Shown one piece after another: positions 6,419-18,960 of a DNA stretch of 64,000 bases. A program made the translations under genes and the position numbers. The stretch is taken from positions 106,201 to 170,200 of IMG/VR virus record IMGVR_UViG_3300025436_000002, one strand, 5' to 3'. The notes under the pieces were generated by a model. The model had not been told where the DNA came from, ran no database searches, and was given only the letters and a program-made list of their open reading frames with translations. The stretch's first letter is position 1; every line of letters begins with the position of its first letter. The DNA comes from a virus.

Positions 6419-6651
6419 GTTCTATAAAATATTTAGGCCTAGTGACCCATTTCCCTACAAATACTACTCTACTGTACTACAAACAAGACAGAATTAACTT
6501 AGTTAGAACTACTCAAGGAGAGCCATGGCCATCTGGCTACACTGAAACAGAGTTAGCTAGGGACATGGCGAAATATAATAAAGACTTTCTGTATGTTACG
6601 GACAGATTGGAGATATTAAAAACAATCATGACATGGGAGTTATTGAAATGA
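6415..6651 (+). CDS. C-terminal-tag family small protein
   Basis: Ends ILKTIMTWELLK*. Confidence 0.85.
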   Translation: MSSIKYLGLVTHFPTNTTLLYYKQDRINLVRTTQGEPWPSGYTETELARDMAKYNKDFLYVTDRLEILKTIMTWELLK

Positions 6652-6703
6652 AGAAAAGAGGATACTTAATAAATATCTAATGTGCGGAGAGTTATTAAAA
6701 TGA
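6648..6703 (+). pseudogene. Deleted tag-family cassette (orphan tag)
   Basis: ATG 6648 opens only 10 codons; another frame reads ILNKYLMCGELLK* whose TGA overlaps ATG 6700. Confidence 0.7.
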
Positions 6704-11307: not shown

Positions 11308-11449
11308 ATGAGTTATGTAGAAGATGTCTTAGAGTTAGTAAGATTTACGGAGTTAGTTAACGATAATTCCATGGGGGGGTGGGTTGGATATTGAAATACT
11401 CTTGAAGGAATATAGGAAATATCTTATGATGAAGGAACTATTAAAATGA
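11308..11449 (+). pseudogene. Tag-family ORF frameshifted in a G7 run
   Basis: GGAGG RBS, ATG 11308; G7 at 11373-11379; G6 gives a continuous ORF ending YRKYLMMKELLK* overlapping ATG 11446. Confidence 0.7.
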
Positions 11450-11682
11450 AGATGGTAGCTGTAATGACAGATGTTCAGAATCCTGAGATAATTTGTTATT
11501 ATTTTGAAAAAGAAGGATACAAGTATCTATTACTTGAGGATAATGGGGAAAACTGGGTGCAGTACACGGGGCATACTCTAGAAACATTACTAGACACGGG
11601 AAGGTTGTCTAATAATTTTAATGTCACAACTGATTCCTTAGAAATTAACAAACATTCCATGCTGAGAGAGCTGTCGAAGTAG
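11446..11682 (+). CDS. C-terminal-tag family small protein
   Basis: Ends INKHSMLRELSK*. Confidence 0.85.
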   Translation: MKMVAVMTDVQNPEIICYYFEKEGYKYLLLEDNGENWVQYTGHTLETLLDTGRLSNNFNVTTDSLEINKHSMLRELSK

Positions 11683-11846
11683 AATTAAAAGAATACGGGA
11701 GGTAACCTTTGAACCAGTCCATGTTGTTTAAAATAAATATTATTTACATATCTCTGTACCTACTGATAGGTCCGTCCATGTTCACTATGCTAATTAGTTT
11801 GTACATTAGCATGTTGTTTATAGTATGCTATAAGGATTCAAAATAG

Positions 11847-12887: not shown

Positions 12888-13157
12888 ATGAATGTTTTTG
12901 ATTTAATAGGCGGAGTCCCCCAAGATCCAAAACCTCCAGTTACCCACTTATCCATGTATACTGAAGAAACTGAGTCTATATTAACTTCAAGTACTGAAAC
13001 GTGGTATAAGCTTAAAGCAGGTAGCATGACGCTGTTCGAATCTCAGGATTTGAAAGAGGCCGAGGAATACGCTGAGTTCAATAAGAACGTACTCTTTATA
13101 GATAACGTAAAGCTGTATAAGAAAGTAACTACTAAGGAACTAATAAAAGAATACTAA
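12888..13157 (+). CDS. Hypothetical protein
   Basis: AAGGAG RBS. Confidence 0.7.
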   Translation: MNVFDLIGGVPQDPKPPVTHLSMYTEETESILTSSTETWYKLKAGSMTLFESQDLKEAEEYAEFNKNVLFIDNVKLYKKVTTKELIKEY

Positions 13158-13259
13158 ATACTAGGAAGATTCAGTGTATTTTATATTAAGAATATTAGGA
13201 ATAGCTATTATTAATAAAGATGATAATCTTGAGATAGGTACTAAGACTAAGAAAGGTTT

Positions 13260-13622
13260 TTGGTAAGCATGGCTAAAAAACTAGAAATAAGTATAGGGGA
13301 TATAATTACTATTGCTAGAGCTACTGGATATTTTAGATACGTAGCTAGTTTACCTAGAATAGGTTATCACGATGTAAAAGTATTTGTCAAAGAACTTGGA
13401 TCTGGAGGGAAAATTGACTCTTCTGATTATAAAGTGGAGAGGATCGGCTTTGTGGGGATAGCTAAAGTATCCAAAGAGTCTCTTGATGAGATGTATAATA
13501 AAGAATTAAAGAGTATTGAAGGACGTAAGATTAGACTCGAAGCTAAGAAAAAAATATTATCAAAATTGACTAAACCCTCTGAGATAGCTAAATTCTTAAT
13601 GACAAGGGAACTATTGAAATGA
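13260..13622 (+). CDS. C-terminal-tag protein with unrelated body (coiled coil)
   Basis: Ends IAKFLMTRELLK*. Confidence 0.85.
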   Translation: MVSMAKKLEISIGDIITIARATGYFRYVASLPRIGYHDVKVFVKELGSGGKIDSSDYKVERIGFVGIAKVSKESLDEMYNKELKSIEGRKIRLEAKKKILSKLTKPSEIAKFLMTRELLK

Positions 13623-13885
13623 AACACGAAGATTATCTTACGGATGATAAAGGACTTATATACTTAGACTCTCTCAAAGCTGAGGGTCTAACCTTTAAAT
13701 ATGTTCCTAAATGGACATCTAAATATAATAGTTATGTGGTATATGACTATGAACCTTTCTGTGCTGATGGATTCTATGTTTCAGTCGATCTTGAAGGGGA
13801 TGAATCCATGGTTAATTATGTAGTATATCTGTGTGATAAAAGAAAAGAAGGTATCGAGAATATCAAGAGGTGCTTTAATGAGTAA
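13619..13885 (+). CDS. Hypothetical protein
   Basis: ATGA-coupled; C-terminal NYVVYLCDKR resembles NYILYLCEKR of 26903..27196. Confidence 0.7.
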   Translation: MKHEDYLTDDKGLIYLDSLKAEGLTFKYVPKWTSKYNSYVVYDYEPFCADGFYVSVDLEGDESMVNYVVYLCDKRKEGIENIKRCFNE

Positions 13886-14123
13886 AGAGTACGTAATTAT
13901 CGCCAAATTTTTTGATGACGGGCCAACACTGGAGTATTTTAGATATCCAGATAATTCTAATGATATTTACTATATGTTTTCAAATTGTACTAATCTAGAA
14001 AGTAGACATCCTTATAGTGTTGATCGTATAGTATGTGATCTTAGTCAAAGGAATACTGTAATGTTGTTAACAAATAAAAAAGATATAGATAAATACCTAA
14101 TGACCAAAGAATTATTAAAATAG
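13878..14123 (+). CDS. C-terminal-tag family small protein
   Basis: Likely start MSKEYVII at 13878; ends IDKYLMTKELLK*. Confidence 0.85.
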   Translation: MSKEYVIIAKFFDDGPTLEYFRYPDNSNDIYYMFSNCTNLESRHPYSVDRIVCDLSQRNTVMLLTNKKDIDKYLMTKELLK

Positions 14124-14125
14124 AT

Positions 14126-14189
14126 TGTAAAGTTTCATTTCAATAACCTTACTGAGAGTCTTGACGACTCTCTTTTTTTATGCTATCAT
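14126..14189 (+). promoter_or_regulatory. sigma70-like promoter fused to terminator hairpin
   Basis: TGTAA at 14126; TTGACG(14161)-N17-TATCAT; -35 lies in the loop of gagagtc/gactctc followed by T7. Confidence 0.75.
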
Positions 14190-14219
14190 GTTCTTGTAAG
14201 GTTAAATAAGGAGTTAGTC

Positions 14220-14522
14220 ATGAAAGAATATACGGTAGAATTTATAGTCCTAGTAGGGGAAGGTGCAGGTCATGAACACAAGACTATAAGTATTAAAATA
14301 AATGCTGAGGATACGGAGTCTGCATTAGTGATAGCTAAAAGCATGCTATCCATAGAAATTCAATTCAAAGGGGAGTGTGGGTATTTAGCTCCCAATGCTG
14401 AAAAGCTCCATAAATATGAAATAGATTATGACGATTCAAACCCATGTAATGATTGTGAGTTATCTTCTTGTGTAGGCTGTGCTCATTCTGAAACTAATGA
14501 TGATTGGGAAGACTATGACTAA
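14220..14522 (+). CDS. Hypothetical protein
   Basis: AAGGAG RBS; Cys-rich acidic tail. Confidence 0.7.
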   Translation: MKEYTVEFIVLVGEGAGHEHKTISIKINAEDTESALVIAKSMLSIEIQFKGECGYLAPNAEKLHKYEIDYDDSNPCNDCELSSCVGCAHSETNDDWEDYD

Positions 14523-14556
14523 GAACTTTGATACATGTGTAAAAGGAGTTAACTGA

Positions 14557-14811
14557 GTGAGGGAATACATACTTTTTGAAAGGTATTGGAACTACGAACA
14601 TAAATACTACTACGTCGAAGATGAAGTTACCTATTGGGTATATTCTGGAGGAGGTCCTCCTGCTATTTCAGCATGGCAAGGCGAGGCGGATGTTAAAAGG
14701 TTAGTCCGTATTACTAAACTTGATAGTCTTGAAAAGGTACAACCTTATATATTAACTATTGGACATCGTGAAGTGGCTAAGTTATTAATGGAGATAGAAT
14801 TGCTAAAATGA
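14557..14811 (+). CDS. C-terminal-tag family small protein
   Basis: Starts MREYIL; ends VAKLLMEIELLK*. Confidence 0.85.
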   Translation: MREYILFERYWNYEHKYYYVEDEVTYWVYSGGGPPAISAWQGEADVKRLVRITKLDSLEKVQPYILTIGHREVAKLLMEIELLK

Positions 14812-15041
14812 AAAAAGTCTTAGCTCTTATACTTGATATGGAGTCTAATGAGATAATTTGTAGGATAGCTTGTGATACCTATGGAAATACGTTCACTTCG
14901 TTAGGCGGTGTTAATTGGAGATATGCTCAAAAACCTATGTCCTACTACATAAGTTCTGTTAACTTAGGAGAGGGTTATTACGCTGTAACATCTCCAGAGG
15001 GTGTTGATGAGTTACTTATGGTTGAGGAGCTATTAAAATGA
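14808..15041 (+). CDS. C-terminal-tag family small protein
   Basis: Ends VDELLMVEELLK*. Confidence 0.85.
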   Translation: MKKVLALILDMESNEIICRIACDTYGNTFTSLGGVNWRYAQKPMSYYISSVNLGEGYYAVTSPEGVDELLMVEELLK

Positions 15042-15307
15042 AAAGAAGGTTTATTTATTTAGGGCATTCCAATACCTACTACCCAGGTGGATCAGGTAAT
15101 ACATGTTACAATAGATATTATTACTTTAGAGACGAAGAGTATACAGTATATCTCTCGGATATTTGTTATCCTACTAAACATAGTCTATCCCGAATATCAT
15201 CAGATCGTCTGAAATGTAGGCTACACGGGGCAGGAGGACATGTCATGTGTAAACGGAGTAAAAAGAGTATATCTAAATTTTTAATGACTAAGGAGTTATC
15301 TAAATGA
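15038..15307 (+). CDS. C-terminal-tag family small protein
   Basis: Ends ISKFLMTKELSK*. Confidence 0.85.
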   Translation: MKRRFIYLGHSNTYYPGGSGNTCYNRYYYFRDEEYTVYLSDICYPTKHSLSRISSDRLKCRLHGAGGHVMCKRSKKSISKFLMTKELSK

Positions 15308-15600
15308 CTAAAAAGTATATAGGACTTATTCTAGGGAGGTACAGTAGGTGCGGAGATTTTAATTTCTATTCACCTTCCATGAAGATATACTATGTTGAAA
15401 ATAGAATTTGTTATCAAAGTGTTGTATTTGACGAGATTCCCGTCATGCCAAACCTTTATAATAAAACATTTACTATGGATACAAGTTATGCTAGAGTAGC
15501 ATTTGACTTAATTATAGCTAAAAGACATAGTTGTCTAACAGTCATTACAAACCATGCTGAGATTATAAAATATTTAATGACGGAGGAACTATTAAAGTGA
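15304..15600 (+). CDS. C-terminal-tag family small protein
   Basis: Ends IIKYLMTEELLK*. Confidence 0.85.
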   Translation: MTKKYIGLILGRYSRCGDFNFYSPSMKIYYVENRICYQSVVFDEIPVMPNLYNKTFTMDTSYARVAFDLIIAKRHSCLTVITNHAEIIKYLMTEELLK

Positions 15601-15641
15601 AGATTAATAAATTCTTAATGTTAAAGGAGTTATCTAAATGA
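15597..15641 (+). CDS. 14-aa tag-only micro-ORF MKINKFLMLKELSK
   Basis: GTG overlaps upstream stop (GGAGG RBS); TGA overlaps ATG 15638; entirely in frame. Confidence 0.65.
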   Translation: MKINKFLMLKELSK

Positions 15642-15826
15642 GGGATATAAATAGAATACCTAGAATACTTAAAAAATTAGAGGAGGTTTGGACAGCTTCT
15701 CCAGATTTGAGATTATTTCAACTACTGACATGGGTTGTTCGAGACTACAGAGGTGACTTATTCTACCTTGAAGACGACGTTGTAGAGGACAACCTTAATG
15801 AAGAGAAGATACGGAGGCAAGTATGA
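15638..15826 (+). CDS. Conserved phage hypothetical protein
   Basis: MRD..RI...L..L...W...PDLRL.QL motif. Confidence 0.7.
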   Translation: MRDINRIPRILKKLEEVWTASPDLRLFQLLTWVVRDYRGDLFYLEDDVVEDNLNEEKIRRQV

Positions 15827-16089
15827 GTTTATCTAAAGAATTCTTCATACAACTTAAAATTAACTTCGACGAAGTCTTTGGAGGTACTAGTCTCCTAGAC
15901 ATGGAACATATGATACATAGTGCGGGTACTATGGGTTTTGACAGGGCTCTTCTAAAGACTTGTAAAGAATTCAATGTGATGTCAACTTACCAAGAGTTTG
16001 AAGGTATGGATTGGTATGAGTATGATGTATCATGTTCTCTTCTAGTCGATGAAGTGGCTAATGCTTTGGAGAGAATACATGAAAGCTAA
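15823..16089 (+). CDS. Hypothetical protein
   Basis: GGAGG RBS, coupled ORF. Confidence 0.7.
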   Translation: MSLSKEFFIQLKINFDEVFGGTSLLDMEHMIHSAGTMGFDRALLKTCKEFNVMSTYQEFEGMDWYEYDVSCSLLVDEVANALERIHES

Positions 16090-16366
16090 AAGAGGAAATA
16101 GTGTTTATTTTAATGTTCAAGATATTAACTTTATTCTTATGGAGGAGGGACGTATACTATATGAGTATGTATGGAAAAACAATAATCTCTATGTTAGACA
16201 TAGGGATATGGAAGTTCACCTCATAGGTAACAAGTTGGGTTCTTCTTTAAGAGAGGTGGTAGCTTACTTTAAAGGAAAACATGCGGAGATATATCCGAAT
16301 CTCTTATTTTCAGATGATAAGATTCATATAGATAAATTGTTGGTGATAGAAGAGTTATTAAAATAG
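16079..16366 (+). CDS. C-terminal-tag family small protein
   Basis: Likely start 16079; ends IDKLLVIEELLK*. Confidence 0.8.
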   Translation: MKAKRGNSVYFNVQDINFILMEEGRILYEYVWKNNNLYVRHRDMEVHLIGNKLGSSLREVVAYFKGKHAEIYPNLLFSDDKIHIDKLLVIEELLK

Positions 16367-16376
16367 AGGAGGTCGT

Positions 16377-16865
16377 TTGGGTAAACTAAGTTATAGGTTA
16401 GAAGGAACCGTGTTAGTAACTACAGAAACTTTCGGATTCTCGACCAGAAGTGAATATTGTGATCTGGCTACATGGGAGACGTTTGAGATTGATAAGATGG
16501 GAGCTAGATTTTTGGTAACATCTTTAAAGTTTGAAGACAGGGGAGGTTACTTAGATAAGGTAGTCCAAGCTAGGGATCAGCTTGCCAAAGAACTCATGTA
16601 CGGAGAAGTTGTTTGGAAGAGTGCTAAAGAACAAGAAGCTCACCACTCTAAATGTGATAGAAGAAACAAGGAGCTTGAATACTTTAAAGAGGACTTAGCC
16701 CATGATGCGGGAGTCCCTTCTGAGGAAGAAAAAATTGATGCCGTTAACCGAAAGGCTGTAGAATTAGATTGTAAATATGAAATTTATGGGTATAGGTTTG
16801 TACTCGGAAAACCTTTTCACAACACTAAAAAAGGTAGAGACAACATAAATAGATTATTTAATTAG
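16377..16865 (+). CDS. Hypothetical protein, paralogue of 2388..2864
   Basis: Shared N- and C-terminal motifs. Confidence 0.8.
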   Translation: MGKLSYRLEGTVLVTTETFGFSTRSEYCDLATWETFEIDKMGARFLVTSLKFEDRGGYLDKVVQARDQLAKELMYGEVVWKSAKEQEAHHSKCDRRNKELEYFKEDLAHDAGVPSEEEKIDAVNRKAVELDCKYEIYGYRFVLGKPFHNTKKGRDNINRLFN

Positions 16866-17175
16866 GAGGTACGGTATATGGTCACACTACTGCTTATTAT
16901 AGCATTTAGCTCTCTAACTTTTAAAGGTCTAACCTTATCTATTTTATTTACATGGTTAAACCTACATCCATTTGTTACCTTATTTCTTATAGGAGAAATC
17001 ACTAGGGATGTGATTAAACTCGGGAGTAATAAGATTGGATAAGATCAACCTAAGGGTACTATTGGATGAGTGGGCTATGGAGCTTAAAGGAGACAGGGAT
17101 TAATAAAGCTCCAAGAGCTCGAGCAAAGATAGTAAGATACATACGAGTTGAGGAAAGTAACTCGCAATAATAAAG

Positions 17176-17186
17176 TTTATATTATA
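17176..17186 (+). promoter_or_regulatory. Putative late promoter TTTATATTHTA
   Basis: TTTATATTATA upstream of discoidin-like gene. Confidence 0.7.
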
Positions 17187-17233
17187 TACAGATTGCCTCT
17201 CATGGGGGGGTAACATTGTACGGAGAATATATA

Positions 17234-17721
17234 ATGTCAGATTAAAATTTAGTTCCAGTAATGACAAGTAGTACGGCTCCTAGTGGAGTAGCTAGTGCAA
17301 GTAGCGTGTATAGTTCTTCTTTTGCTGCATGGTATTCCTTTGATAACAATGTTAATACTTATTGGAGAAGTCTTTCTACCGTAAATAATAAATGGCTTCA
17401 ATATCAATTGACTAGCCAGAAGACGTTAACGGGTTATGCCATAACTGGGTACAATTCCTCCCACAATCCAGCATCATGGACTTTAAAAGGAAGTAATGAT
17501 GGTATAGGCTGGATAACATTGGATACTCAAACAGGTCAGAATACAGATAGAGGAGAGAGTATAGTATTTCTGGGATTAACAACTATACGTACGTCAAACT
17601 TGATAATTTAGTAGCTACTAATGGAGATATAGTATGGATACGTGAATTTGAAATTCTAGGTACTGACTATATAGCCCCTCCCTCAATAATACCTCGAGTG
17701 GTAAACTATTGGTCAATTTAA
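17234..17721 (+). pseudogene. Disrupted discoidin (F5/8 type C)-like virion protein
   Basis: MSD*NLVPVMTS..PSG (in-frame TAA); body homologous to 54053 and 54952 (W.L.GSNDG..W..LDTQT); frameshift near 17550 continues ...IREFEILGTDYIAPPSIIPRVVNYWSI*. Confidence 0.75.
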
Positions 17722-17741
17722 CATCCTAAGGAACCAAGATT

Positions 17742-17768
17742 AAAAGAGAGTTGTAAGACTCTCTTTTT
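17742..17768 (+). terminator. Intrinsic terminator
   Basis: aaaagagagt-tgtaag-actctcttttt. Confidence 0.8.
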
Positions 17769-17796
17769 GTATTTAAAATGGAATTACTCATCCTAC

Positions 17797-17859
17797 TGTA
17801 AAGAAAACTTAACATTTTAAAGTCTAAGGCTTGACAAATTAAAGAGGATAGTTTATACT
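17797..17859 (+). promoter_or_regulatory. sigma70-like promoter with upstream TGTAA box
   Basis: TGTAA-N8-TAACA at 17797; TTGACA(17831)-N17-TATACT. Confidence 0.75.
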
Positions 17860-18021
17860 AAATACATAAAGACAAGTATTTTATAACGAATGTAGGTTGT
17901 ATCATGAAAGGAAGGAAACGTATGTAGCTTAGGCTATACTAAATAGCATCTAGTGGACTATATTATATTTAAGAATGGTGCTACTCCTTCGTGGGTGGTG
18001 CCATTTTTGTTAACTTAGGGG

Positions 18022-18391: not shown

Positions 18392-18637
18392 ATGAAAGAA
18401 TATATAGCTGAATATTCAACAAATAGGCATATAAGAAGATACTATGTTCGAGAAGGGGAGTTATTCTACAATTTATATAGTCCTTTCTCAGACGGTAGCG
18501 AAGAGAAAAAAGACGTATACAATAACAGTGTTCATGCTCTATCCATTGGGATGTATTTTGTAAACGCATCTAAACTAGTAATACTAAATCAAGGTCTTGT
18601 TGATAAGTATCTTATGCTGGAGGAACTAATGCGGTGA
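18392..18637 (+). CDS. C-terminal-tag family small protein
   Basis: Starts MKEYIAE; ends VDKYLMLEELMR*. Confidence 0.85.
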   Translation: MKEYIAEYSTNRHIRRYYVREGELFYNLYSPFSDGSEEKKDVYNNSVHALSIGMYFVNASKLVILNQGLVDKYLMLEELMR

Positions 18638-18960
18638 GAGAGTACCCTGAAAAGAAAGAGACTGGCTTTGTCGAACAACACGTTTTTATGTGTCTCCATA
18701 ACCCAAATAGACTCCCTGAATATTATCATAAACCAGTAGAGTCCAAGTTTTATATATCTGAAGGACAGAGTTATTACTATTTATTTCAAAATCAATCTTT
18801 GAAGTTTTATACCTCCAATTCAGGCCTCTTAATAAAAGTTCACCACGGCAACCCCCAGAAATCCTTAAACCATTTTAAATATAATAGACTAAACTACGAT
18901 ATAATTACTAATAAAAAAGAAATAAGAAAACACTTAATGATGAAGGAGTTATTGAAATGA
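18634..18960 (+). CDS. C-terminal-tag family small protein
   Basis: Ends IRKHLMMKELLK*. Confidence 0.85.
   Translation: MREYPEKKETGFVEQHVFMCLHNPNRLPEYYHKPVESKFYISEGQSYYYLFQNQSLKFYTSNSGLLIKVHHGNPQKSLNHFKYNRLNYDIITNKKEIRKHLMMKELLK

Follow-up and report, generated by a model that had tools for sequence, protein, structure and literature searches.

Bacterial and phage operons are known to couple the translation of neighbouring genes where a stop codon overlaps the next start (ATGA or GTGA). Gene remnants occur at the module boundaries of mosaic phage genomes, and the ssrA-type degrons exemplify portable C-terminal tags that target proteins through a dedicated receptor. In T4-type phages, the hyperplastic regions of the genome undergo modular shuffling at short conserved intergenic cassettes, the promoter-early stem-loops or PeSLs (Arbiol et al. 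2010, PMC2839356; PMC4122927). The locus described here is a 14-codon open reading frame (the micro-ORF) that lies between two phage genes and consists entirely of the conserved tail of a gene family. By analogy, PeSL modular shuffling appears to be the closest known process and an ordinary gene remnant the closest known object. On balance, the micro-ORF is probably a by-product of cassette turnover, kept as the translation-initiation region of the following gene (gene C), rather than a decoy peptide.

The window, that is, the whole 64-kb stretch of DNA analysed, is the right-hand part of a virus record of 170,200 bp with 34% GC. The record is rated about 90% complete and contains a match to the T4-type major capsid protein (Gp23); the genome is that of an uncultured T4-type phage. 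Between 89 and 134 kb of the genome about 70 + strand open reading frames end in the same ten-residue motif, the tag, in register with the stop codon. About 63 of these are full-length family members of 71-145 amino acids. A nucleotide position matrix was trained on the 63 full-length tags, which score 17.6 bits at the minimum and 34.9 bits at the median. At a threshold of 14 bits it finds 71 tag matches on the + strand of the 170-kb genome and 0 on the - strand, and a degenerate tag pattern has 31 matches in the window against 2.4 expected. With a score of 30.3 bits, and given this strand bias and excess over expectation, the tag match of the micro-ORF cannot be attributed to chance.

Codon usage in 69 tags shows that the tag is under two constraints. 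Five different codons are used at each of the two Leu positions (-8 and -3), and Lys at -10 is encoded by AAG in 32 tags and by AAA in 28. This synonymous spread indicates selection on the tag as protein. The variable codon at -5, just before the invariant Glu, has G as its last base in 51 of the 69 tags compared with 16% in gene bodies and thereby builds a GGAG, and 50 of the 69 tags end in ATGA or GTGA. These two features indicate selection on the Shine-Dalgarno (SD) motif and on the overlapped start codon. The tag thus serves both as the predicted terminal helix of a domain and as the source of translation signals for the next gene.

The protein side of this assignment draws on 31 family members that align as one small domain. 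An AlphaFold (AF2) model of gene B, a full-length member, built from this 31-sequence alignment (pLDDT 77.8, pTM 0.66) consists of four strands, a helix, a strand and the tag as terminal helix at residues 84-97 (pLDDT about 90). On this prediction the tag forms the final helix of a small beta/alpha domain common to the aligned paralogues. It resembles the ssrA-type tags as a short motif that many proteins carry in register with their stop codon, but differs from them in that the model makes it the structured terminal helix of a single homologous domain. Foldseek returned no match for the gene B model in the PDB at E<=0.001, and Pfam returned nothing for the family members. A HMMER search of 1.84 billion representatives found only 67 family proteins, about half of them from this genome. 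The 34 found on other metagenome contigs are all tagged, with the exception of one truncated variant of a window gene.

The micro-ORF and its immediate surroundings comprise the following features (window coordinates here and below, unless marked as genome positions):

14808..15041, + strand: gene Y
15038..15307, + strand: gene A, an 89-aa family member
15304..15600, + strand: gene B, a 98-aa full-length family member
15582..15586, + strand: GGAGG Shine-Dalgarno motif, 10 nt before the micro-ORF GTG
15597..15641, + strand: micro-ORF, 14 codons plus stop (GTG, 13 sense codons, TGA)
15609..15641, + strand: orphan 33-nt copy of the tag DNA, 30.3 bits
15624..15629, + strand: AAGGAG Shine-Dalgarno motif for gene C, 8 nt before the gene C ATG
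15638..15826, + strand: gene C, 62 aa, untagged and outside the tag family
15823..16089, + strand: gene D, forming a conserved block together with gene C

Read directly from the sequence, the GTG of the micro-ORF (15597-15599) shares its TG with the TGA of gene B (15598-15600), and its own TGA (15639-15641) overlaps the ATG of gene C (15638). The original prediction had described an intact, tag-only 45-nt frame with a GTG on the upstream stop, a GGAGG ribosome-binding site and a TGA on the next ATG, and every element of this description is confirmed. The tag of gene B (15568..15600) carries both the SD and the GTGA overlap with which the micro-ORF begins. A full-length family gene at 18634..18960 has the same GTGA overlap with identical SD spacing; the start signals of the micro-ORF are therefore of the type used by real genes. 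The geometry is that of a coupled frame, with its start on the upstream stop, its stop on the downstream start and an SD at working distance. As in known coupled operons, there is a 4-nt overlap at either end and the upstream SD lies inside the preceding coding sequence, here that of gene B; the differences are that the unit is only 14 codons long and wholly family tail, and that coupling is suggested here by geometry. With signals equal to those of real genes, the micro-ORF is probably translated by reinitiation. The period of the unit is 41 nt (15597 to 15638), which preserves the -1 frame step of every cassette in the array.

All 14 codons belong to the conserved family tail. The micro tag is identical to the family consensus at 33 of 39 nucleotides and ranks third among the 69 tags in likeness to it. 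Like the tags of full-length members it supplies a GGAG (within the AAGGAG at 15624-15629) and an overlapped start (ATGA, 15638-15641), and its C-terminal motif is in register with the stop codon. It lacks the body domain of the family, that is, the N-terminal strand, the Tyr-rich hairpin, the middle helix and the strand before the tag. The micro-ORF is a fragment of a family member, not a member, and the AAGGAG is the portion with an evident job.

The position of the micro-ORF in the -1 frame of gene B also allows a reading as a frameshift extension, in which the Lys tRNA, slipping by -1 on A-AAG beside the gene B stop, would give gene B a second tag in tandem. The slip would move the tRNA from AAG to AAA, where it can re-pair, and the GGAGG lies 8-10 nt upstream; an SD-like GGAGG upstream of a slip site is comparable to the dnaX-type stimulator. 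There is, however, neither a full slippery heptamer nor a downstream structure, and most junctions in the array have the same geometry, where reinitiation is the simpler account. An extension of this kind is extremely improbable. A structured RNA or a leader-peptide attenuator uORF was considered and rejected, since no Rfam match at E<=1 was found in 13000..18000 and the micro unit has no stable or unusual RNA fold (fold z = +0.84).

Two hairpins, both from a consensus scan only, bracket the operon that contains the micro-ORF:

14154..14189, + strand: hairpin overlapping a promoter-like site, TTGACG-17-TATCAT
17742..17767: second hairpin

In the region 17742..17859 the hairpin adjoins or overlaps a sigma-70-like site (TTGACA-17-TATACT), and the hairpin and promoter sites at 14154..14189 and 17742..17859 look like T4-type promoter-early stem-loop cassettes. 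The likeness to PeSL shuffling has several parts. Both cases concern T4-type phages with arrays of small, non-essential, fast-changing early genes. In both, short repeated boundaries are the only DNA common to the cassettes, and whole-cassette gain and loss separates close relatives. A PeSL-like hairpin with promoter does flank the operon of the micro-ORF. In contrast to a PeSL, the boundary in this array is not a promoter-terminator hairpin but coding and translational, being made of a C-terminal helix, an SD and an overlapped start. The micro unit itself carries no hairpin or strong promoter within 15597..15641 according to the consensus scan, and so is not a PeSL cassette. Recombination at the tags would be the counterpart of recombination at PeSLs.

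The exact gene C product is found on ten contigs. Five of these (from ENA, JGI and Logan, and from five samples) can be aligned across the micro unit, which is unchanged in them letter for letter. This agreement among five independent assemblies rejects an assembly artefact. The contigs that keep the unit (five to six assemblies) match the window at 99.98-100% identity along as much as 10 kb, and are therefore uninformative on selection or conservation. The one diverged relative read at the B/C locus is L011, a 1-kb ENA contig (sample ERZ27250570) with the gene order X'-B'-C'-D'. In L011 the tag of B' overlaps the ATG of C' directly through an ATGA; the micro unit is absent, as are counterparts of genes Y (14808) and A (15038). 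The original prediction had named conservation of the empty unit in relatives as a check, and this one diverged relative, where B' joins C' without it, speaks against conservation of the unit as an ORF.

Gene C and its L011 counterpart are 89% identical at the nucleotide level, and the proteins agree at about 53 of 61 residues to 91%. At third codon positions the identity between window and L011 is 69% in gene C and 65% in gene D, compared with 49% in gene B and 51% in the tail of X. The similarity changes at a seam on the gene C ATG, and the micro unit lies exactly on the border between a conserved block and a shuffled array. Given the drop in identity at this ATG, B and B' may be exchanged alleles and not strict orthologues. 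Gene C has only a weak sub-threshold match to DUF1040 in Pfam.

Megablast of the 6-kb region against phage records gave no match. Scans of IMG/VR and JGI with gene C found 25 loci at 42-65% identity, none within a tag array and hence uninformative on the junction. Gene B retrieved only the window's own protein in the IMG/VR scan and in a word-based protein search, and exact look-ups of B' and D' returned only L011. One exact junction pattern had 0 matches in IMG/VR, and the other had 10 single chance matches and no arrays. A 97-kb JGI contig carries a near-identical family paralogue (P0057) and may be a relative. According to their gene tables, one of three contigs with family arrays has a 45-nt gap, in which a similar stub could lie.

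The micro-ORF is not the only place where tag DNA has come apart from a gene body. Further stubs and broken copies are present in this genome and in L035, a contig of a related phage (sample ERZ27271935) that matches this genome only over islands the size of a junction, 28-60 nt long and 80-97% identical:

6648..6703, + strand: second empty unit, with a coupled ATG leading into a 10-codon head that stops at 6680
11308..11449, + strand: split tagged copy in two frames, broken at a run of seven G (11373..11379)
genome 102609..102692 (window -3591..-3508): in-frame head-plus-tail of 27 codons, a typical family N-terminal strand fused to the tag
genome about 101250..101483 and about 100286..100430: tagged copies, each broken by one frameshift
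L035:750-794: tag severed from its family gene body by an in-frame TAG exactly before the tag
L035:1032-1055: 7-codon ORF corresponding to the second tag half, between two ATGA overlaps
L035:1343-1371: tag-like stretch in a 5' leader, before the first gene past an intergenic gap

In the unit at 6648..6703 the tag (6671..6703) lies in another frame and has no start, but the gene at 6700 still draws on its GGAG and ATGA. A strain variant, L005 (sample ERZ27271935), has a 266-nt partial tandem duplication (L005:1776-2209, corresponding to window 11566..11831) made of the tail of gene 11446..11682 and the spacer that follows it. In the first copy 22 positions differ from the window, and the duplication yields an orphan tail of 39 residues with the tag at its end. 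The array thus holds a graded series of decayed units. Every stub ends on the ATG of the next gene, and the constant portion is the SD, spacer and ATG and not the frame. The original prediction had taken the micro-ORF to define the minimal unit. The 7-codon half-tag of L035, with an ATGA at both ends, is smaller, and other stubs lack a start altogether, so that the claim does not hold.

Some of these units have peculiarities of their own. The join in genome 102609..102692 lies at a Tyr-Lys-Phe stretch resembling both the second strand of the family and the start of the tag. The start codon of L035:1032-1055 is the invariant Met codon of the tag. A one-base change in the G run at 11373..11379 would join the ATG-started head of 11308..11449 to its tag. 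Recent pseudogene formation, a sequencing error or a slippage-prone tract could each account for the split. A further candidate, a 7-codon half-tag at genome 105468..105491, was dropped as it lies inside a longer open frame.

The comparison of stubs bears on two functional readings of the micro-ORF. In the first, the frame and not the peptide is under selection, and the micro-ORF acts as a relay in which ribosomes finishing gene B restart at the GTG and are delivered to the ATG of gene C. The 4-nt overlaps at both ends, the 41-nt period that maintains the -1 step, the ATGA or GTGA at 50 of 69 junctions and an SD spacing as in the real gene at 18634 are what such a relay would need, and two of the three head-plus-tail stubs are in frame. 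Two of three is nevertheless compatible with the chance rate of one third. The stub at 6648..6703 is tolerated although its translation ends 20 nt short of the next ATG, gene C has a strong SD of its own at ideal spacing, and L011 does without the relay. A selected relay is accordingly doubtful, if still worth keeping in mind.

In the second functional reading, which the original prediction had put forward, the free 14-mer would compete with the tagged proteins for a common partner, the supposed tag receptor, or would cap the interface of the tail helix. The selection on the tag as protein in about 70 paralogues and in the 34 proteins from other contigs implies that something recognises or needs the tail helix, and the ORF is intact, in frame, consensus-like and provided with good start signals. 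The notion of a competing peptide is nonetheless unsupported. L011 lacks the unit, other stubs have their tag DNA in a frame from which the peptide could not be made, and in the model the tag belongs to a folded domain instead of being a detachable signal. The contigs that do keep the unit are too close to the window to give a signal of conservation. A free-tag peptide is very unlikely, and the same low likelihood applies to the specific idea that a copy of the helix, made in step with gene B, modulates whatever the helix of the about 70 paralogues binds, be it a partner or each other. Should the peptide prove to have a function, this would be a rare example of a phage encoding a competitor or cap for its own protein family. 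An intact tag-only frame is not automatically a designed peptide.

The relation of the micro tag to the other tags gives some indication of its origin. It agrees with the adjacent gene B tag at 26 of 39 nucleotides, close to the family average of 24.9 (sd 3.1), and therefore does not look like a recent tandem copy of the gene B tail. Its nearest neighbour is the tag of gene A, 334 nt upstream, with 32 of 39 nucleotides identical, and the Ser codon TCT is used by these two tags alone. The match to gene A is about 2 sd above the mean of the micro tag over 68 comparisons, which is what is expected of the best of 68, because a consensus-like tag is close to all tags. Duplication of a tail, either as a 41-nt tandem copy from gene B or as a copy from gene A, would replace the separate body-less cassette as the source of the unit. 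The variant L005 demonstrates that partial duplications creating orphan tails do happen, and the TCT and the 32 matching nucleotides point towards gene A. As the gene B match is no better than average and the gene A match no better than the best of 68 comparisons with a tag that resembles everything, a duplicated tail remains unlikely.

Most likely the unit is a cassette tail that is without its body, or an imprecise join made during cassette exchange to the left of gene C. The sequence of the stub at genome 102609..102692 suggests that this one arose by microhomology-guided deletion. The original prediction had offered a precise deletion of the gene body between two junctions. Loss of the body is supported by the graded series of decayed units and by the location of the micro unit where the similarity to L011 changes, whereas "precise" is too strong, since the same product would arise if a tail were partly duplicated or if recombination joined the ends imprecisely.

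In the favoured reading, the micro-ORF as a turnover by-product, a body-less cassette tail or an imprecise join formed when cassettes upstream of the C-D block are exchanged would leave the 41-nt unit. The unit would persist because its 3' half is the translation-initiation region of gene C (AAGGAG, 8 nt, ATG), which explains why the stub is retained. As the stub is in frame behind the GTGA and the SD of gene B, ribosomes leaving gene B probably restart and read the 14 codons. They would then stop on the ATG of gene C, and translation would pass to gene C as at other junctions of the array. The 14-residue product would be a lone amphipathic helix cut from its domain, for which no role of its own is expected. 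The observations beneath this explanation are the anatomy of the locus, the two constraints on the tag, the absence of the unit in one relative and the presence of similar stubs elsewhere; to these it adds, by reasoning, the originating event, translation and the absence of a peptide function.

Two observations run against a remnant. The stub is undecayed, being in frame with a start, an SD and 33 of 39 consensus nucleotides, and must be either young or maintained. Its 5' half (15600..15620) is not required for the SD of gene C, and the retention of this half fits only a recent unit.

The stubs of this array differ from the gene remnants of mosaic phage genomes in that each also carries the ribosome-binding site of the next gene, which provides a concrete reason for retention. 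Tag DNA can thus be kept even without a protein body, because it holds the ribosome-binding site and start of the gene that follows. The micro-ORF is small when taken alone. Its value is that of a fossil, which marks the seam between a hypervariable cassette array and a conserved gene block. Together the stubs support a view of the tag as a dual-purpose junction that combines protein helix, translation signal and recombination seam.

Two further features recur in the tags. At most junctions, for example 15592..15600, an A-AAA-TGA or A-AAG-TGA follows a GGAG at 8-11 nt, a geometry that could permit a -1 slip fusing neighbouring cassettes. The Met of the tag is nearly invariant, being present in 66 of 69 copies, even though a single base change would give Leu, Ile or Val. 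It occurs in the context TTAATGA (e.g., 15574..15580 and 15615..15621), which is similar to the terminal ATGA junction and in the +1 frame has a TAA followed directly by a TGA.
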